From Octopus vulgaris (Eukaryota): a DNA stretch of 64,000 bases. How positions within the stretch are numbered: position 1 is the stretch's first letter; each line of letters opens with the position of its first letter. Shown piece by piece: positions 3,980-59,392 of this stretch. The position numbers and the translations under genes are program-made. The notes beneath the pieces were generated by a model. The model made no database searches, was not told where the DNA came from, and worked only from the letters and a program-made list of their open reading frames with translations. The stretch lies in NCBI GenBank assembly GCA_951406725.2, contig OX597817.1, positions 128,650,001 to 128,714,000 on the forward strand, given 5' to 3'.

Positions 3980-4150
3980 AATGGTTTCAAATATTGGCAC
4001 AAGGCCAGCAATTTCGGCGAAGTGGCTAAGTCAATTATATCGATCCCACAGTGTTCGACTGGTAGTTATTTTACCGACCCTGAAGGGATGAAAGGTAAAA
4101 CTGACCTCGGCAGAATCTGAGCTCATGATGTTAAGACAGCCAAAATGTCA
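3980..4150 (-). mobile_element. SINE family B (tRNA-like head plus GCCTTTCATCCTTTCGGGGTCGATAAA core)
   Basis: Reverse complement of the family seen at 7768, 43875 and 61752. Confidence 0.75.
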
Positions 4151-4155
4151 TTAAA

Positions 4156-5655
4156 GTGTTTCAGTTCAGAAATAGTAAAGGAAAAATTAACCATTTCCTC
4201 TACATGGATGATCTGAAGTTTTTTAATAAGAATAAAAAGGAGATAAATTCCTTAATACAAGCAGTAAAACTCTTCAGCAAAGACATAGGCATGGAATTTG
4301 ACATAGATAAGTGTGCAATATTAGTCATGAAAAAGGGACAGGTAGTTAGCAGTGAAGGCATCCAATTACCAGATGGCCAGACATTAAAATCACAGAAAGA
4401 AGGAGAGCTATAAGTATCTAAGAGTATTAGAATGTGACAGAGTTTTAACTATAGAAATGAAAATGAAAATTGAGGTGTACATCAGTAGGGTGAAGAAGCT
4501 AATGAAGTGAAAACTAAATGGTCCGAATCTAGTAACGGCTATAAATACTTGGACATTATCGTTACTTAGATATTCAGTAGCTTTTGTAGATTGGACAAAA
4601 TCTGAATTAGAAAATATCGATAGAAGAAATAGGAAGGAATTCAATATGAATAGAGGACTTCACCCTAGAACAGGAGTAGCAAGATTATACTTAGAAAGGA
4701 AGGTAGAAGAGAGTTAATACGAGAAGAAGAATGTGTGGAGTTAGCTAGAGTAGATATAGACTTCTATGTATATAATAGTGAATAAAGGCTAATAAGAGTT
4801 GCTAGAGTCACAGCAAGACATAGGAAAACCAAAAAGCCAAAAGAAGTTAAAAATCAGACAAAAGAATAAGATTATTTGACTGACAAGAAAAGTCCTTGCA
4901 TGGTAGATTCCCAAAGATAGTTGCAGGAAATAGTAATTGTGAAACATGGTTATGGTTGCATGACAGAAAGTTTGATAGTAACAGCATAAGATCAAGCATG
5001 GAGGACTCATTGGATAAAAGCGAAGATATATAAAATCCAAGTAGATGTAGGTTATGTAAATTAAAAGAGGAAGTGTTATTCATACAGTAAGTGAATGTAA
5101 CATGTTGATACAGAAAATATACCAGAAAAGACATGACATTCTAGGGTGTAAATCTACTGGAATTTATGTAGAAAGTTAGGATTTCACCATACTGATAAAT
5201 GGTATGAACATGAACCTAATAAAGTAGTAGGAAGTAAGAAATTTAAGATGTTGTGGGACCTTAACATTCAGATGGACAGAGTAATAGGAGGTAGGTCTGA
5301 TTTAGTAGTAGTAGACTAAAAGAATAGTAAGTCCCAAATGATGAGAAAGTCAACATGAGAGGTATAGAGTAAATAGCAAAGTACCAGGACTTAACCATTG
5401 AGTTACAGAGACCGTAGAAAATGCAGGTAAAATTGAATATCTGTAGATATAGGTGTATTAGGAGCTATTCCTAAAGATTTGAACAGAGGGGTACAGGAAA
5501 TAGGCATAAAACCCAGTTTAGTACAGCTCAAGAAAATAGTGTTTTTAGATGCAGCTAGGATTCTTAGCAGGGCTCTTGTCATTTAAAGTTAGTTGTAGCC
5601 TGATGTAAGAAATTTTTCGTTTTCGACAGTTTAATCTGTTGTGTGTATATGAAAT
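4156..5655 (+). mobile_element. Decayed Dong/R4-clade (RLE) non-LTR retrotransposon, 3' portion
   Basis: RT motif NHFLYMDDLK, then DIGMEFDIDKCA and remnants KRHD..., DKWYEHEPNKVV, KMLWDLNIQMDRVI..RSDLVVVD; many stops and frameshifts; ends in a TAA/TGA tract. Confidence 0.88.
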
Positions 5656-22049: not shown

Positions 22050-22925
22050 TGCATATCCACTGATAAGTTTTTGGCACCTAAACATTAATTGTTTATTCTC
22101 TAATTTACAGTTTTTATAATGAGTGTTGAAAAATGTAATTAGAATCATTTTACTTTACCTGTGATGAAAAGGACTGAATGCAATGGCAGTTGCAAAAGAA
22201 ATTTAATGTGGAAGGCCCAGAAACTATCAATGAGCGTGTGACACAAAACTATTTCAGACGTTTCAAAGGAGGTGACACCAGCCTCGAAGACAAATCACAG
22301 TCAGTGAAAACTTCTGTTGTAGAAGATGAAGCCTTACTTAAAATGGTTGAACTGCCATGCACAAGCACTCGTCCTTCAGAAAGCACCATCAGTCGACACC
22401 TCCATTAGCTCGGCCTTCTGAACAGACGCTGTCGAGAAGTTCCACATGAACTGACTAATGACCAGGCTCGACGGTGTGTGAACATTGTAAGCAACTCGAG
22501 ATGCCCGTTTTTTGGCGCCAAATTATAACCTATGTTCTCAACAATTGTAGTGAGTATTCTTTGAAAGCCCGCTACCCAGCATTAGTCAATAGAAGATGCA
22601 CACACACCTACAGCATAACGATATCCGAACGGAAACTGCCAATGCAACCAAGTGCAAGCTTGAAGGACTCGAAGGCCTGGAACTGCTCCTTTACCCTTGC
22701 CTACAGCCCAGACCTTGCACAATCGGATTACAACATCAGAAAAAGTTTTTCGTCTCTAAACCAGCCATATGGTTTAAGCATGGAATTGAGCTTTTGCTAC
22801 AACGATGGCAACAAATAATAGAATACGTTGTGATATATTTTGGTGCATAAACGATTTTCGCGTGTAATTTATTTAAATTATTAAAGTTTGAAATACAAAC
22901 AAAAAAACTTTTGACAAAACCTGGC
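22050..22925 (+). mobile_element. Internally deleted mariner (DD34D-type) remnant
   Basis: INERVTQNYFRRFKGGDTSLED, EVPHELT (WVPHEL motif) and YSPDLAQSDY (YSPDLAPSD motif). Confidence 0.85.
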
Positions 22926-25907: not shown

Positions 25908-27218
25908 CAGGGTGGGGCAGAGAGGACGGACGTTTTTGAAATGGCTATTACTCAGCCCCAGTGGGAGGGACATATGTCTGACAGGTACCATTCCGTCCGT
26001 AGTGTCTTAGCATTTTTTTTTCTTTTCAGATGACGCCATGACGCGTGTTTGCCTACGACAATTACGTGAAGAATAACGAGTCTGTCACAGCAGCTCATCA
26101 TGAGTTTCGGCGCCACTTTAACATTCACCGAAATCAGGCTGTTCCCACCCATAACACAATCTTACTTTGGCTGAATGTACTTCGTACACGAGTTACACTA
26201 ATGAATAGAAGACCGGTGAGAGCACCACAAACGCTACAGACTCCGGAAAATGTGAAAGTTTTGACACAGAGTCTGAATCGTTTTGCTCGGTGGCATCCCA
26301 CTGAACTTGGCATCGATAATCGATCGGTAAGGTATATTTTGCATGAAGGCCTACATTTCCACCCGTACAAATCGGTCATTGGGCAGCAGTTGAAACCATG
26401 GGACTATGCACAGCGGTTTCGCACGTCAGATGGAAGCAATTTTTGTGGCAAATGACAAACTCATTTTGTTATTGAGTGATAAATCTCATTTTCATCACAA
26501 TGGGATGGTGAATCAACTGAACTGTCGTTATTGGGCTCTTGAAAGTCCGAGAGAACTGTACGAAAGACCACTGCACAGCCCAGATTTGAAGGTCTGATGT
26601 ACTGTTGGAAAAGCTGCCGTCATTGGTCCTTACTTTTCTTGAAGACAATAATGAAGATGTTGTTACTGTGAACTCCGAGCGTTACATCGAGATGATAAAC
26701 AACTTCGTGCTTGAAGTACGACGAAAACGTAGGTCTATTCGACGTGTGTGGTTTCAGCAGGATGGGGCGACGGCCCACACATCCAGAGCATCAATGAACG
26801 TTCTTCGTCTTCTCTTCGGTGACTGTCTCATTTCCTGGTGTGCTGACTGATATACCTTGGCCTCACCCCCACTCGGTCCCCTGATTTGTCCGTGTATGAT
26901 TATTTCTTGTGGGGAAACTTCAATCCACGTGTGTATGCGCATAAACCCCGTACATTGGACGATTTGAAGGAGGCTATTCGCGTGGAAGTCGAACAAATCG
27001 ACTGAGCAATTCTGGAGAAAGTGGAGGCCAACTTCCAAGAAGGCCTTCAGAAATGCATCAAGAAAAACGGATACCACATGATGGATATTGTTTTCCAGGG
27101 TTAATTTTGACAAATGCAAATTCAATACGGACACATTGATGTCAGTAACTTTGTCTGCAGCTATAATTAATGATTTTGTGAATTTTTCAAAAACGTCCGT
27201 CCTCCCTGCCCCACCCTG
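25908..27218 (+). mobile_element. Full-length decayed DD41D (rosa-type) Tc1/mariner transposon
   Basis: 33-bp TIRs CAGGGTGGGGCAG(A/G)GAGGACGGACGTTTTTGAAA with TA TSD (25906-07, 27219-20); ESVTAAHHEFRRHF, LSDKSHFH.NG.VN..NCRYWA, WFQQDGATAHT and DIPWP..PDLS..DYFLWG; D-D spacing of about 41 after correcting indels. Confidence 0.92.
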
Positions 27219-46418: not shown

Positions 46419-49400
46419 ATGTATGTATGTATGTATGTATGTATGTATGTATGTATGTATGTATGTATGTATGTATGTATGTATGTATGTATGTATGTAT
46501 GTATGTATGTATGTATGTATGTATGTATGTATGTATGTATGTATGTATGTATGTATGTATGTATGTATGTATGTATGTATGTATGTATGTATGTATGTAT
46601 GTATGTATGTATGTATGTATGTATGTATGTATGTATGTATGTATGTATGTATGTATGTATGTATGTATGTATGTATGTATGTATGTATGTATGTATGTAT
46701 GTATGTATGTATGTATGTATGTATGTATGTATGTATGTATGTATGTATGTATGTATGTATGTATGTATGTATGTATGTATGTATGTATGTATGTATGTAT
46801 GTATGTATGTATGTATGTATGTATGTATGTATGTATGTATGTATGTATGTATGTATGTATGTATGTATGTATGTATGTATGTATGTATGTATGTATGTAT
46901 GTATGTATGTATGTATGTATGTATGTATGTATGTATGTATGTATGTATGTATGTATGTATGTATGTATGTATGTATGTATGTATGTATGTATGTATGTAT
47001 GTATGTATGTATGTATGTATGTATGTATGTATGTATGTATGTATGTATGTATGTATGTATGTATGTATGTATGTATGTATGTATGTATGTATGTATGTAT
47101 GTATGTATGTATGTATGTATGTATGTATGTATGTATGTATGTATGTATGTATGTATGTATGTATGTATGTATGTATGTATGTATGTATGTATGTATGTAT
47201 GTATGTATGTATGTATGTATGTATGTATGTATGTATGTATGTATGTATGTATGTATGTATGTATGTATGTATGTATGTATGTATGTATGTATGTATGTAT
47301 GTATGTATGTATGTATGTATGTATGTATGTATGTATGTATGTATGTATGTATGTATGTATGTATGTATGTATGTATGTATGTATGTATGTATGTATGTAT
47401 GTATGTATGTATGTATGTATGTATGTATGTATGTATGTATGTATGTATGTATGTATGTATGTATGTATGTATGTATGTATGTATGTATGTATGTATGTAT
47501 GTATGTATGTATGTATGTATGTATGTATGTATGTATGTATGTATGTATGTATGTATGTATGTATGTATGTATGTATGTATGTATGTATGTATGTATGTAT
47601 GTATGTATGTATGTATGTATGTATGTATGTATGTATGTATGTATGTATGTATGTATGTATGTATGTATGTATGTATGTATGTATGTATGTATGTATGTAT
47701 GTATGTATGTATGTATGTATGTATGTATGTATGTATGTATGTATGTATGTATGTATGTATGTATGTATGTATGTATGTATGTATGTATGTATGTATGTAT
47801 GTATGTATGTATGTATGTATGTATGTATGTATGTATGTATGTATGTATGTATGTATGTATGTATGTATGTATGTATGTATGTATGTATGTATGTATGTAT
47901 GTATGTATGTATGTATGTATGTATGTATGTATGTATGTATGTATGTATGTATGTATGTATGTATGTATGTATGTATGTATGTATGTATGTATGTATGTAT
48001 GTATGTATGTATGTATGTATGTATGTATGTATGTATGTATGTATGTATGTATGTATGTATGTATGTATGTATGTATGTATGTATGTATGTATGTATGTAT
48101 GTATGTATGTATGTATGTATGTATGTATGTATGTATGTATGTATGTATGTATGTATGTATGTATGTATGTATGTATGTATGTATGTATGTATGTATGTAT
48201 GTATGTATGTATGTATGTATGTATGTATGTATGTATGTATGTATGTATGTATGTATGTATGTATGTATGTATGTATGTATGTATGTATGTATGTATGTAT
48301 GTATGTATGTATGTATGTATGTATGTATGTATGTATGTATGTATGTATGTATGTATGTATGTATGTATGTATGTATGTATGTATGTATGTATGTATGTAT
48401 GTATGTATGTATGTATGTATGTATGTATGTATGTATGTATGTATGTATGTATGTATGTATGTATGTATGTATGTATGTATGTATGTATGTATGTATGTAT
48501 GTATGTATGTATGTATGTATGTATGTATGTATGTATGTATGTATGTATGTATGTATGTATGTATGTATGTATGTATGTATGTATGTATGTATGTATGTAT
48601 GTATGTATGTATGTATGTATGTATGTATGTATGTATGTATGTATGTATGTATGTATGTATGTATGTATGTATGTATGTATGTATGTATGTATGTATGTAT
48701 GTATGTATGTATGTATGTATGTATGTATGTATGTATGTATGTATGTATGTATGTATGTATGTATGTATGTATGTATGTATGTATGTATGTATGTATGTAT
48801 GTATGTATGTATGTATGTATGTATGTATGTATGTATGTATGTATGTATGTATGTATGTATGTATGTATGTATGTATGTATGTATGTATGTATGTATGTAT
48901 GTATGTATGTATGTATGTATGTATGTATGTATGTATGTATGTATGTATGTATGTATGTATGTATGTATGTATGTATGTATGTATGTATGTATGTATGTAT
49001 GTATGTATGTATGTATGTATGTATGTATGTATGTATGTATGTATGTATGTATGTATGTATGTATGTATGTATGTATGTATGTATGTATGTATGTATGTAT
49101 GTATGTATGTATGTATGTATGTATGTATGTATGTATGTATGTATGTATGTATGTATGTATGTATGTATGTATGTATGTATGTATGTATGTATGTATGTAT
49201 GTATGTATGTATGTATGTATGTATGTATGTATGTATGTATGTATGTATGTATGTATGTATGTATGTATGTATGTATGTATGTATGTATGTATGTATGTAT
49301 GTATGTATGTATGTATGTATGTATGTATGTATGTATGTATGTATGTATGTATGTATGTATGTATGTATGTATGTATGTATGTATGTATGTATGTATGTAT

Positions 49401-51497
49401 GTATGTATGTATGTATGTATGTATGTATGTATGTATGTATGTATGTATGTATGTATGTATGTATGTATGTATGTATGTATGTATGTATGTATGTATGTAT
49501 GTATGTATGTATGTATGTATGTATGTATGTATGTATGTATGTATGTATGTATGTATGTATGTATGTATGTATGTATGTATGTATGTATGTATGTATGTAT
49601 GTATGTATGTATGTATGTATGTATGTATGTATGTATGTATGTATGTATGTATGTATGTATGTATGTATGTATGTATGTATGTATGTATGTATGTATGTAT
49701 GTATGTATGTATGTATGTATGTATGTATGTATGTATGTATGTATGTATGTATGTATGTATGTATGTATGTATGTATGTATGTATGTATGTATGTATGTAT
49801 GTATGTATGTATGTATGTATGTATGTATGTATGTATGTATGTATGTATGTATGTATGTATGTATGTATGTATGTATGTATGTATGTATGTATGTATGTAT
49901 GTATGTATGTATGTATGTATGTATGTATGTATGTATGTATGTATGTATGTATGTATGTATGTATGTATGTATGTATGTATGTATGTATGTATGTATGTAT
50001 GTATGTATGTATGTATGTATGTATGTATGTATGTATGTATGTATGTATGTATGTATGTATGTATGTATGTATGTATGTATGTATGTATGTATGTATGTAT
50101 GTATGTATGTATGTATGTATGTATGTATGTATGTATGTATGTATGTATGTATGTATGTATGTATGTATGTATGTATGTATGTATGTATGTATGTATGTAT
50201 GTATGTATGTATGTATGTATGTATGTATGTATGTATGTATGTATGTATGTATGTATGTATGTATGTATGTATGTATGTATGTATGTATGTATGTATGTAT
50301 GTATGTATGTATGTATGTATGTATGTATGTATGTATGTATGTATGTATGTATGTATGTATGTATGTATGTATGTATGTATGTATGTATGTATGTATGTAT
50401 GTATGTATGTATGTATGTATGTATGTATGTATGTATGTATGTATGTATGTATGTATGTATGTATGTATGTATGTATGTATGTATGTATGTATGTATGTAT
50501 GTATGTATGTATGTATGTATGTATGTATGTATGTATGTATGTATGTATGTATGTATGTATGTATGTATGTATGTATGTATGTATGTATGTATGTATGTAT
50601 GTATGTATGTATGTATGTATGTATGTATGTATGTATGTATGTATGTATGTATGTATGTATGTATGTATGTATGTATGTATGTATGTATGTATGTATGTAT
50701 GTATGTATGTATGTATGTATGTATGTATGTATGTATGTATGTATGTATGTATGTATGTATGTATGTATGTATGTATGTATGTATGTATGTATGTATGTAT
50801 GTATGTATGTATGTATGTATGTATGTATGTATGTATGTATGTATGTATGTATGTATGTATGTATGTATGTATGTATGTATGTATGTATGTATGTATGTAT
50901 GTATGTATGTATGTATGTATGTATGTATGTATGTATGTATGTATGTATGTATGTATGTATGTATGTATGTATGTATGTATGTATGTATGTATGTATGTAT
51001 GTATGTATGTATGTATGTATGTATGTATGTATGTATGTATGTATGTATGTATGTATGTATGTATGTATGTATGTATGTATGTATGTATGTATGTATGTAT
51101 GTATGTATGTATGTATGTATGTATGTATGTATGTATGTATGTATGTATGTATGTATGTATGTATGTATGTATGTATGTATGTATGTATGTATGTATGTAT
51201 GTATGTATGTATGTATGTATGTATGTATGTATGTATGTATGTATGTATGTATGTATGTATGTATGTATGTATGTATGTATGTATGTATGTATGTATGTAT
51301 GTATGTATGTATGTATGTATGTATGTATGTATGTATGTATGTATGTATGTATGTATGTATGTATGTATGTATGTATGTATGTATGTATGTATGTATGTAT
51401 GTATGTATGTATGTATGTATGTATGTATGTATGTATGTATGTATGTATGTATGTATGTATGTATGTATGTATGTATGTATGTATGTATGTATGTATG

Positions 51498-51527
<30 letters not shown>
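46419..51527. repeat. Perfect (GTAT)n/(ATAC)n array, ~5.1 kb (~1277 units)
   Basis: No interruption visible; uninterrupted YVCM/IHTY translations in the ORF track. Confidence 0.98.
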
Positions 51528-53348: not shown

Positions 53349-53414
<66 letters not shown>

Positions 53415-53421
<7 letters not shown>

Positions 53422-53853
53422 AAGTAGATAAATGAATTATCTTAATACGGATTATTCAAATGATAACCGATACCTGGGTAGCAAAAATCACAACAGAAAA
53501 AGCACGGTTGAGGTTACGACCATGGGGCCTAAAATCCGTGCCTTAGTGCGGAAATTTGAAGTTTTATATATTTAGTGTAGGAAGAAATGGAGCTGAACGA
53601 AGATTTAACAAAATTCCTTTTTATTATTTTCTACATATGTTTCAAAGGCTGCAAAGAACCCTAATTCGGATTGAATAAGGAGTCTATTTTGCAGCCTTCT
53701 CTTCAGGAAAATCCAGGAACTTAATTCTCCAACAAAATGCACAGCAAGCTTTTCGACATGTAAAATATAAATAACGCTGAAGCAAAGTAACACCAAATAT
53801 ATAGTGCGTGTGTTGTTATTGGCTAAACTGGCAAAATGACCATTCCTAAATAC

Positions 53854-53858
<5 letters not shown>
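53415..53858 (-). mobile_element. ~440-bp solo pLTR-like element inserted in (TA)n, carrying an intact HHR
   Basis: Long (TA)n on both sides; HHR at 53626-53712. Confidence 0.75.
53626..53712 (-). ncRNA. Type I hammerhead ribozyme, intact core
   Basis: ATTTTC-CTGAAGA-G-AAGGCTGCAAA-(32 nt)-TTTGCAGCCTT-T-GAAA-C-ATAT-G-TA-GAAAAT: 6-bp stem I, 11-bp plus G.U stem II, palindromic stem III, GUA triplet. Confidence 0.85.
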
Positions 53859-53939
<81 letters not shown>

Positions 53940-55544: not shown

Positions 55545-55900
55545 AAACAGCGTATGACCTTGCAGGTGAGGCTCATCCCACTCAAAAGGTCTCTGAATAA
55601 GAATTATTTAAGGTTGATGAGTAAAACACCGATGTTTCCAGAGGTGAATTATTCAAGCCCAACGGAATTCCTTTCAACACATGGCGAAGCTGCTACTCCA
55701 CTATCAGAGATGCACAAATTGTCAGCCAATAAGGAACATACTCAAACAGTTAGGTCAAGCAACTGACAAGAAAATCTGTGGCATTGAGCAGAATACTTGT
55801 TGTAGCCCATCTTTCACCCTCAAGAGGAACCATGTACAAGATAACACTTCCAATTAGTTAAGATCTGAAGTCATGAGAACACAGCCAGGTATTGCATCAA
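55545..55900 (-). mobile_element. Copy of the 3143-3518 repeat
   Basis: Reverse-complement alignment to 3143-3518. Confidence 0.7.
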
Positions 55901-55918
55901 TATATTATTATTATTATT

Positions 55919-57269
55919 CTATGTTTGACTTTTGCTTTATGTCTGTACAAGTTGGCTCCAAGTCTCACCCAGAGACCCCAAGAGACAACAGGTTGGAAGT
56001 TCACGTTGTTGTTATGCCTAGTGTGCCATATATTCGGGTTTTTTTTTTGGTGTTGTACTAGTGAATGTCTAATACATAAATTTAAAAAAGAAAATTGTTT
56101 TAAACCTTGGGATTACATAGAGAGTATTTTGCGTAGGATATGAGCAGTTCCCATGAGCACTATCTTTTGAATTTCTGTATTTTTGGGGTTTCCTGGTATC
56201 TGAGTTAGGTAGCAATCAGCCCCTTTCGCTATCATTCCCAGGGCACCTATGACAACAGGTATTGTATTAGTCTTCAGGTTCCACATTTTGCTGATTTCTA
56301 TTTCAAGATCTTTATATTTGCTCAGTTTTTGGTAGGTCTTGACAATTACGTTTATATCGATTGGGACAGTCATATCAATGAGGAGGCATGTTCTTTGTCT
56401 GAAGTCTTTCAATATGATGTCTGGCCTATTTGCATCTATCTTTCTGTCAGTTTGAATGGTGAAGTTCCAGAGGAGTGAGATGTGGTCATTTTCAAGCACT
56501 GGAGGTGGATTGTGTTCCCACCAGTTTTTTTCATGGGGCAAATCCAGGTTGTTGCAAATTACCCAGTGAATATATTGTGCAACTCTATCATGCCTGTTGA
56601 GGTACTCTGTAGGCGCTAGAAGACTGCATTTGGAGACATGATCAATGGTTTCATTTTGTTGTCGACATACACGACATGTTGGGCTACTGCGATTCTTTAA
56701 TATGTTGGTCTGGTAGTTTCTTGTTGGTAGGCATTGATCTTGAGCTGCTATGATAAACCCCTCTGTTTCAGATTTTAAGCCAGAGGCCATTAGCCATTGA
56801 TGGGTCAGGGCTTTGTCAATATCTGCATTATTCGCTCTCTTTGGGTATTTGCCATAGAGAGGTTTTTCTTGCCATTTATTATTCAGAATATCTAAGGCCG
56901 CAGTTTTGGCACGGGTTTTCATGCGCCTAGCTTTTTCTGTTCTTGTTTCTTGTATGTCTATTCCGAAATTTGTTGTATTCGGAATTCACTTAGATATTCC
57001 TTTGCCTGTTTTGTTACTGAGTATGATGCTTTCTTGTTTTCATGTTTTGAGACAAGTTTTAACATCCAGTCCTCAGACTTTTTCAAGTAGGTGTCTAGGC
57101 CAATTGTAGCAATCTTCATTGTTATTGCCAGTTGCAAAAGACCACGGCCTCCCTCTTTTCTTGGCAGATAGAGTCGTTCTGCATCTGCCTTAGGGTGGTG
57201 CATTCTATGCATTGTCAACAGTTTTTTTATTTTTCTGCCGAGCTGACATATTTCAGTAATTGACCAGTT
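55919..57269 (-). mobile_element. Dong/R4-clade RLE LINE, 5'-truncated and relatively intact (ORFs 56958-57218 and 56113-56922)
   Basis: MHHPKADAERLYLPRKEGGRGL, LKSETEGFIIAAQDQ, CCHC knuckle CRVC..ETIDHV..C, RHD, RPDII..D...LIDMTVP, KLSKYKDL, PVVIGALG; (TAA)n on both sides. Confidence 0.95.
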
Positions 57270-57287
57270 ATTATTATTATTATTATT

Positions 57288-58421
57288 TTCACTTTATCAC
57301 ACGTTTTCTCGGAGCTCCTGGACACTTACATGCGTAGCAGGCTTACTACCTGCAGTCTAAGGTACTATGTTTTCCATTCTTTTTAGCTATCGGATACTTT
57401 CCTGATTATTCTGACCGCGCCAAAGAAGCAAACATTTTGTAACAGTTCTACTGGGCGCTCTATTCCAATTAGCTTTATATTCTTCTTGATGCCCTCTGAT
57501 AGTACCAAGGACTCAACAATAATTGGCACTATCTTCACCTTCATTTTCCATAGCCGGGCTATTTCGTACTGAAGAGGGTTGTATCTATCTATGTTTTCGC
57601 CTTCCTTCTTGACTATTCGTGGGTCAAAGGGGCATGCAACATCAACTATGTAGCATATGTAGTGTACTTTGTCCACCACCACTAGGTCCGGTTTTTTATG
57701 CTCTAGCACCTGATCTGTTTGGATTGGGAAATCCCAGAGGATTTTGCTAGTCACCGACACCGTCACTCTCTGCCGTTTGTGCTCATACCACCTCTTGCCT
57801 CTCTAGCCCCCACTCGCCGCACAGTTTCCAATGTAGCACTTTCGCTACGTTGTCGTGTCGCTACAACTTGTAGTTGTTTTAGGCAAGTCTAGGGCATTCG
57901 TTCATGATATGGGCAATGGTTTCAACCACTCTAATGCAGATGCGGCCCAGCAGAGACACTTACTCATTCCTAAGATTGACGCTCCAGTTCTTGGCCAAAG
58001 CTTGATCTTGAGCTGCCAGTAAAGCGATCGCGTTCTCTTTTTTAATGTTCTTTTCATCAGCCATTCCCACCTATTTTTTCCAGCAGCTTCTGTTGTGACT
58101 ACATGGAATTAATTGCATAATTCTTCTTCATGTCCTTTTTGTATTCTTCCTTTGTTTTCACTTTTTTCTCTGCTCTCAATACTCTCTCGTTCCTAAATGT
58201 CACTAGCAAAGTTTCCTTCCTTTGGGCTAGGTATCTCATTAAGCTCTCGAGTTCGATACGCATGCAGTCTTCGACACTTATCACTCTTCTTCCTCTATTT
58301 TCTCTCTTCATGTATTGGCAATCAGTGCCTGCACATAGATGATGGGCTCCATGCATCATCAGAAGTTTCTTGACTTCCTGACCATCTCTTTTAGCTCCTC
58401 CTCTGTCCACTTCAGAATAGC
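57288..58421 (-). mobile_element. Second, more decayed Dong/R4-clade LINE fragment of a different subfamily
   Basis: KILWDFPIQTDQVLEHKKPDLVVVD...IVDVACPFD...YEIARLWKM...PIIV; upstream KLLMMHGAHH...RGRRVISVEDC. Confidence 0.9.
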
Positions 58422-58544
58422 TTTAGGTCGTCCTTGAATAGCAAGTGGTTCATTTTCCCTGACTTCTTCCTAAATCACACCCTAATTTTGTTTTCTATAG
58501 TATTTCACTCAAGGGGATCATTCTCAGCACGAATATCAGTAGGG

Positions 58545-58642
58545 ACATCCTTTCGGGGTCGATAAAATAAGTACCAGTTTCGCACTGGGGTCGATGTAAC
58601 CGACTTATCCACGTCACCGAACTTGCTGACGTTTTGTCGAAA
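58545..58642 (+). mobile_element. SINE family B 3' part
   Basis: catcctttcggggtcgataaaataagtaccagtt..cactggggtcgatgtaa. Confidence 0.8.
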
Positions 58643-58680
58643 TTATTATTATCATTATTATTATTATTATTATCATTATT

Positions 58681-59040
<360 letters not shown>

Positions 59041-59119
59041 TACTATTATCATTATCATTATCATTCTTCTTCTTCTTATTATTATTATCATTATTATTAT
59101 TACTATTATTATTATGTAA

Positions 59120-59392
59120 AGGTTGCATGGCTTAGGGGTTAGGGTGTTGCACGCACGATCTAGCGATCGTAATTTCATTTCCAAGACCGGGTGGTGCATT
59201 GTATTCTTGAGCAAAACTCTCCATCTCACGTTGCTCTGCGATCACTTCGACACATGACGCGTGGCACACAGGGCACCTGTTCAGATAACGTCGATTTCAT
59301 GATGAGAGTGATCTAATATGTAGCACGAACATTTGGTCGCTATGAACAAATCATTCGCACAGGTTCGGCAAAAGCTGAAGGAGATTCCATCA
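59120..59392 (+). mobile_element. SINE (same type as 34888-35177)
   Basis: Colinear similarity with 34888-35177. Confidence 0.8.

Follow-up and report, generated by a model that had tools for sequence, protein, structure and literature searches.

Hammerhead ribozymes in the terminal repeats of Penelope-like elements (PLEs), insertion in (TA)n and Hydra-type elements are already in print (PMC4209133, PMC8557442). Metazoan PLE hammerheads belong to type I, lie in pLTRs, combine a long helix II with a short palindromic helix III, and mostly occur either singly, in copies that are truncated, or as two motifs close together on opposite strands; their monomers were inactive, and cleavage of dimers was low or slow (PMC4209133). 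The Hydra clade is known both to carry hammerheads and to insert in (TA)n, and the formation of inverted arms and solo pLTRs has been described as an open question (PMC8557442). In Poseidon PAc of the green anole, copies have two classes of 3' end that are a tail apart, the targets are AT-rich and the hammerhead lies near the junction of pLTR and ORF. In vitro, the protein of this element cuts and extends both strands, and the tail is defined by the two internal sites at which it starts; the hammerhead of the element cut only with that protein, was dispensable for insertion and left no ends in RNA-seq (PMC11167929). Furthermore, non-LTR retrozymes have a type I hammerhead, are related to pLTRs and are defined by tandem hammerhead units (bioRxiv 10.64898/2026.07.22.740005).

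Here, we analysed a hammerhead motif on the minus strand of a 64,000-nucleotide stretch of Octopus vulgaris contig OX597817.1 (the window, meaning the whole stretch of DNA analysed). The motif shares the type, location, helix traits and manner of occurrence given above for metazoan PLE hammerheads. The original prediction had placed it in a solo element of ~440 bp inserted in (TA)n. Insertion in (TA)n was borne out by the tracts that flank the element on both sides, and the element itself turned out to consist of two arms of different families, joined head-to-head (Table 1). According to our analyses, the locus is most probably a short (TA)n insertion in which the terminal repeat of a Hydra-like PLE (family A) is joined to a tail-less end from another PLE family (family B), and in which the hammerhead is likely a passive copy.

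Table 1 Features of the two-arm insertion and of its flanks, in positions of the window
Feature	Position	Strand	Basis
Type I hammerhead motif	53626..53712	minus	Descriptor match, folding, variant alignment
Self-complementary 8-mer (stem III); predicted 8-bp intermolecular helix in dimer	53633..53640	minus	Self-duplex -7.0 kcal/mol
Arm A: pLTR and tail of Hydra-like EN+ PLE (family A1), 344 nt	53415..53758	minus	97-98% identity to best-scoring copies over query 101-444, ORF continuity
Optional ~150-nt tail of arm A	53415..53564	minus	Inverted arms stop at query 294, main arms at 442-444
Internal TATATA at which inverted arms in other A1 copies have their tail-less 3' end	53565..53571	minus	Arm ends
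(TA)n target tract, tailed 3' end of arm A	53352..53416		32.5 copies, 100%
Arm B: tail-less 3' end (~99 nt) of second PLE family	53759..53856	plus	97-99% identity to best-scoring copies
Junction of arms A and B, head-to-head with 1-nt microhomology (gap -1)	53757..53759		Junction table
(TA)n target tract, 3' end of arm B	53857..53912		28 copies, 100%

Read on the minus strand, stem I is formed by 6 bp between 53712-53707 and 53631-53626 and is followed by the core CUGAAGA, the first base of which (C3) is 53706. Stem II begins with a pair between G10.1 (53699) and U 53644 and continues with 11 Watson-Crick pairs, giving 12 bp around a loop of 32 nt; GAAA follows from 53643 (G12), stem III has 2 bp and a 4-nt loop, and the triplet is GUA. 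Because H17 is the A at 53632, cleavage is predicted between 53632 and 53631. All parts of a type I hammerhead, i.e., the core CUGANGA, GAAA, UH and three helices, are present, and the coordinates, stems, core and cut site of the canonical, fully paired motif that had been predicted were all reproduced; a possible distal extension of stem I by 5 bp had been overlooked. Compared with the consensus of metazoan PLE hammerheads, stem II and its loop are longer, and G10.1 pairs with U (PMC4209133). The motif was the sole match of the hammerhead descriptor on both strands of the window. A relaxed match occurred in 7 of 100 Markov-1 resamples of the window, and none of them combined a stem I of at least 6 bp with a stem II of at least 10 bp; the motif is not a product of chance. 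Rfam gave no match to the motif at the gathering score, and none of its 48 matches at E<=10 belonged to a hammerhead family, probably because the long stem II and its loop lie outside the models.

We then compared 12 variants, a set of related rows picked by hand from several subfamilies, in which covariation counts sequences and not events. The core letters were unchanged throughout, with variation at N7 and H17. In the alignment, 90% of cells were paired, compared with 35-51% in slid controls, and the covariation score was reached by none of 500 shuffles. Covariation across copies had been named as a check of the motif, and it was found: both sides had changed in 6 of the 12 pairs of stem II and in 1 of the 6 pairs of stem I, which was the weaker helix (83% paired). 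Stem III is uninformative in this respect because it is invariant. Its 8-mer was self-complementary in all 12 variants (-6.0 to -10.3 kcal/mol, with G-U pairs in 5 of them), which agrees with the short palindrome proposed earlier and needed by a dimer model, and the predicted duplex would fit cleavage as a dimer. The partner of G10.1, U in the window copy, is C in 6 of the 12 variants. Among hammerheads of the A1 cluster, the core was kept in 78 of 88 instances (duplicates counted). Singled out at first as a special candidate in the window, the motif is one among very many near-identical PLE copies, and only its loop II departs from the commonest A1 sequence. As judged by these sequence comparisons, the conservation of the hammerhead is due to selection on source elements and not on the window copy.

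A search of the genome from which the window comes (2.8 Gb, 227 contigs) yielded 3549 first-look candidates for the element, a figure that does not equal copy number. Of these candidates, 40 were scored, and the top matches, the window itself excepted, showed 96-98% identity and essentially covered query positions 101-444 only. In loci L031-L036 and L190, arm A runs on into an ORF with RT motifs followed by a C-terminal GIY-YIG-type domain, so that family A has the single ORF with RT and GIY-YIG endonuclease that is the criterion for EN+ PLEs. Pfam assigned no family to this ORF, and Atlas feature matches (0.94-0.97) placed it near clusters some of whose members have RVT_1, HTH_animal and GIY-YIG. 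No retrieved copy had the whole ORF in a single unbroken frame. Family A also shows partial-tandem pLTRs with hammerheads (L187, L189, and L190), inverted 5'-truncated arms and a tail at one end. Full-length tandem copies have a hammerhead in each repeat, at a distance of 3670 nt in L187 and 3474 nt in L189, and in tandem copies the tail continues into the 5' UTR, ~50 nt ahead of the ORF ATG (L015, L069, L070, and L071). The hammerhead is an ordinary terminal-repeat ribozyme motif of an abundant PLE family. Like Poseidon PAc, family A has two 3' end classes a tail apart, AT-rich targets and a hammerhead near the junction of pLTR and ORF; Poseidon PAc belongs to another clade, and the tail of family A is longer and lies in the 5' UTR instead of the ORF (PMC11167929).

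Two loci of family A may be noted separately. L187:709-4460 (contig C16, 46.498-46.502 Mb) is a full-length partial-tandem A3 element with two identical hammerheads and a frameshifted ORF. L190 (contig C6, 75421000-75430990) holds a full-length element of the A1 type, that of the window, interrupted by an LTR retrotransposon in which gag-, protease-, RT- and integrase-like frames were recognized by eye.

The closest likeness of family A is to the Hydra clade, whose diagnostics we compared by eye. The DKT motif is present (SDKT in L035, L187, L188, and L190). The CCHH motif is absent, the two halves of the GIY-YIG core having no pair of cysteines between them in A1, A3 and A4, and these three carry CxxC and CxH flanking the conserved residues E and N. 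At the RWK position, RW is retained and the third residue is F or L. The 3' flanks of copies show insertion in (TA)n. A C-terminal GIY-YIG without CCHH, the DKT motif, CxxC with CxH, (TA)n targets and, close to the 3' end, a type I hammerhead of canonical form with the core CUGAAGAG or CUGAUGA are likewise described for the Hydra clade, and the RT motif strings of the clade, including those of Hydra-1_Obim, agree by eye with those of family A (PMC8557442). On the other hand, A1, A3 and A4 lack the CxCx5C linker that precedes the endonuclease in 9 of 9 Hydra rows in the published alignment; family A has an Asn-rich insert, its unit measures 3.5-3.7 kb compared with generally <3 kb in Hydra, and its tail of ~150 nt compares with a typical 30-40 bp (PMC8557442). 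Because the linker is absent, family A is filed as Hydra-like and not as a proven member. The label 'Neptune-like' was dropped in favour of the Hydra diagnostics (PMC8557442). Identity with Hydra-1_Obim was rejected as well: the hammerhead listed for that element has a 7-bp stem II, an 8-nt loop and a 4-bp stem III (PMC8557442), compared with the 12-bp stem II, 32-nt loop and 8-nt stem III palindrome of family A.

The Asn-rich insert and the missing CxCx5C linker were common to all examined subfamilies of family A (L031-L036 and L187-L190), yet these insert in (TA)n. The retention of (TA)n targeting after loss of the linker speaks against the tie suggested between the two. If read so, family A would be a Hydra-like element whose targeting of (TA)n does without the linker zinc-finger that has been proposed to assist it.

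For arm B, the search of the same genome gave 1151 candidates, of which 40 were scored and were mostly 97-99% identical. Upstream of the arm-B match in L044 lies a GIY-YIG endonuclease with two cysteines inside its core, and the same two cysteines occur in the C-terminal GIY-YIG of the L053 translation. Family B has a minimal hammerhead of its own just upstream of the piece found in the window, which excludes it. Given its own hammerhead and an endonuclease with two core cysteines, family B is a PLE of another type than A; the translations suggest a canonical CCHH-type PLE and are compatible with Neptune as well as Nematis. Its 3' ends fall into a tail-less class (reference positions 459-468) and a tailed class (512-515), and arm B of the window belongs to the former. 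In L038-L066, the minimal hammerhead of family B has a 5-bp stem II and a very short stem III, and its core position 8 is A or C, about equally among the copies displayed. In L011 (contig C14, 74.649-74.652 Mb), one TA tract contains two insertions of two arms each, one from B and one from A1, arranged tail-to-tail.

The window junction was the only one of 87 examined head-to-head junctions that joins different families. This set was screened with low-complexity filtering against microsatellite matches; 29 duplicate loci and long stretches (L031-L036 and L187 onward) were excluded from it, and some internal rearrangements are included. A second supposed A/B chimera, L107, was rejected, both of its arms being A1. 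For the join in the window, our preferred reading, drawn from one case, is a single insertion event on two different RNAs, which we consider somewhat better than an even chance. The arms could also have come together in two events: an A1 insertion would have come first, and its inverted arm would have been erased when B later inserted in the (TA)n next to it, or through a later deletion between neighbouring insertions. Families A and B do share TA tracts elsewhere (L011), a PLE is said to insert into an existing copy or next to one (PMC6765202), and the rarity of cross-family joins in our set speaks for this history too. It agrees less well with a junction that has no TA remnant and a single nucleotide of microhomology, with the usual combination of a tailed and a tail-less arm, and with the similar divergence of the two arms from their own families (~1-3% each), and we give it roughly one chance in three. 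An assembly error would explain why, among the contigs listed from 4 sequencing runs, none spans 53758 and loose ends continue as plain A or plain B. However, these contigs are short and thousands of copies are collapsed in them, so a gap at this point proves nothing, and the geometry of the junction is normal for real two-arm insertions; an error of this kind appears very improbable.

The preferred single-event reading draws on the way in which family A inserts generally. Copies of family A end either after the ~150-nt tail (53415 in the window) or at the internal TATATA (53565-53571), in both cases in (TA)n. In 21 hand-picked A1 loci with two pLTR arms, one arm was tailed and the other tail-less, and the window copy has the same geometry, with arm B as the tail-less partner. 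Exceptions to this one-tail rule were L196 and L199, where both A3 arms are tailed, and L055 in family B. In the A3 set, 24 of 30 loci had an inverted partner, which was A3 in all of them; several of these loci overlap earlier ones. Arms often overlap with neither containing the other, as in L106, L115 and L107, so two priming events are needed. The overlap of arms and the two 3' ends would fit the two-site priming seen in vitro, by analogy with which 53565..53571 may be the second start site of reverse transcription (PMC11167929).

The 5' ends of copies bear on the template. When queries beginning at the cut were used, none of 30 A1 and none of 30 A3 tailed copies had its start there or up to 2 nt away. 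Cleaved RNA in linear form is thus not a usual template, and uncleaved or circular RNA fits; Poseidon PAc likewise gives no sign of cleaved RNA as template (PMC11167929). Starts within the palindrome of stem III were seen in two A3 copies, 4 nt upstream of the cut, and in two A1 arms, 7 nt upstream of it; these retain bases 5' of the cut, and we did not rate them as cleaved templates. Farther upstream, 10 of 30 A1 and 7 of 30 A3 copies had their 5' ends in the stretch of 25 nt that leads up to a CAGTT motif, compared with 1.7 expected in each set, in counts made on the best-scoring loci and not on random ones. This interval was picked after viewing the data for A1, where p=0.009 was obtained with the interval left free; the A3 pile-up, treated in the same way, was not significant (p=0.26). 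The motif lies 166 nt (A1) and 170 nt (A3) upstream of the cut, and we take it to be initiator-like. Transcription of PLEs starts in the upstream pLTR (PMC6765202; PMC2377424), and we infer that many solo copies of family A are reverse transcripts of the 5' leader. The tandem 5' repeats of L070 and L195 extend past CAGTT, which indicates that other templates are used as well. Symmetric junctions away from CAGTT (L103 and L145) equally fit fold-back synthesis. In the window, the 5' end of arm A lies 126-127 nt upstream of the cut, ~40 nt short of CAGTT and of the putative transcription start.

We sketch the following course only as a proposal. The element endonuclease would nick both strands of (TA)n, and the RT, with uncleaved or circular RNA as its template, would prime twice, where the tail ends and at the tail-less site. 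Many of the short copies would be reverse transcripts of the 5' leader, ending near the transcription start ~166 nt upstream of the cut, and at the window locus the second arm would have been copied from family B RNA. In full-length tandem transcripts, the two hammerheads may pair through stem III and release unit-length RNA. The window hammerhead is likely a passive copy of the motif by which the element processes its RNA, and its cleavage is predicted chiefly in dimers or when protein assists. The window copy is probably inert because it stands alone, with neither a partner nor the putative start site. More broadly, and with less than an even chance of being right, it may be that the two arms of such insertions arise from two RNAs by paired priming on both target strands, here from different clades, that solo pLTRs derive from the uncleaved 5' leader, and that (TA)n is targeted without the linker.

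The folding results are in line with a copy of low activity. The active monomer fold lies 2.4 kcal/mol above the minimum-energy fold and makes up ~0.5% of the ensemble, in a prediction that leaves out tertiary terms. Natural hammerheads that cut fast require contact between the stem I loop and the stem II loop, and the usual geometry for this contact is not given by a long stem II paired over its whole length. No second hammerhead stands in cis with the window copy, which as a single copy is predicted to cut poorly. The expectation in the original prediction that such motifs cleave efficiently as dimers is at odds with the published assays, which gave no monomer and low dimer cleavage in one case (PMC4209133) and required the element protein in the other (PMC11167929).

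Two other roles of the locus were weighed against a passive copy. It might be an efficient ribozyme that cuts minus-strand host pre-mRNA and thereby affects a host gene, as its intact core, fully paired stems and the small energy gap to the active fold would permit; sequence of family A also occurs in contigs of two runs that we guess to be RNA. Among the sequencing runs that contain the stretch, none is recorded as RNA and all are contigs, a form of data that does not show RNA ends; the four runs compared with the stretch gave neither joints nor ends. Nevertheless, the copy is not set apart from its relatives, since the core is as well kept in most of the A1 cluster, and it has no partner in cis, a situation in which published metazoan PLE hammerheads are inactive (PMC4209133). 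We consider such an effect on the host highly unlikely. The element might instead be a monomer of a non-LTR retrozyme, non-autonomous and amplified through small circular RNAs. Its size of ~350-440 nt, similar to that of retrozymes, and its type I hammerhead with a short palindromic stem III agree with this, and retrozymes reportedly arise from pLTRs and leave monomers behind (bioRxiv 10.64898/2026.07.22.740005). The 5' ends of the copies vary, however, and colinearity of the copies with the ORF-bearing element extends up to its full length, and the retrieved loci contained no head-to-tail arrays of A units, the extra arms being inverted; the tandem hammerhead units by which retrozymes are defined were thus not seen for family A in these loci. 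The retrozyme reading is largely refuted, and we give it hardly any credence.

The locus matters little as a ribozyme find, and its by-products are more useful to PLE specialists. Family A is young and present in high copy number, which allows the formation of arms and solo pLTRs to be tested by genome statistics alone. The relevant statistics are the lack of 5' ends at the cut, the pile-up at the likely start, the overlapping arms that need two primings and the one cross-clade join. We found no description of family A or of cross-family two-arm PLE insertions in the literature searched, to which Repbase, Dfam and most subscription papers did not belong.

The surroundings of the locus consist of transposon remains and microsatellites. 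For 150 of the 163 non-repetitive ORFs of at least 60 aa in the window, Pfam matches were only transposon-type or sub-threshold and pointed to no host gene, in a screen that cannot show short exons or a long intron. Fragments of LINE-type RT and of Tc1/mariner-type transposase were found at 513-1112, 4135-4410, 22178-22845, 26042-26452 and 55877-59131. Finally, 46419-51527 is a 5.1-kb perfect (ATGT)n array of 1277 copies at 100%, which is unusually long and pure and possibly a feature of the assembly.
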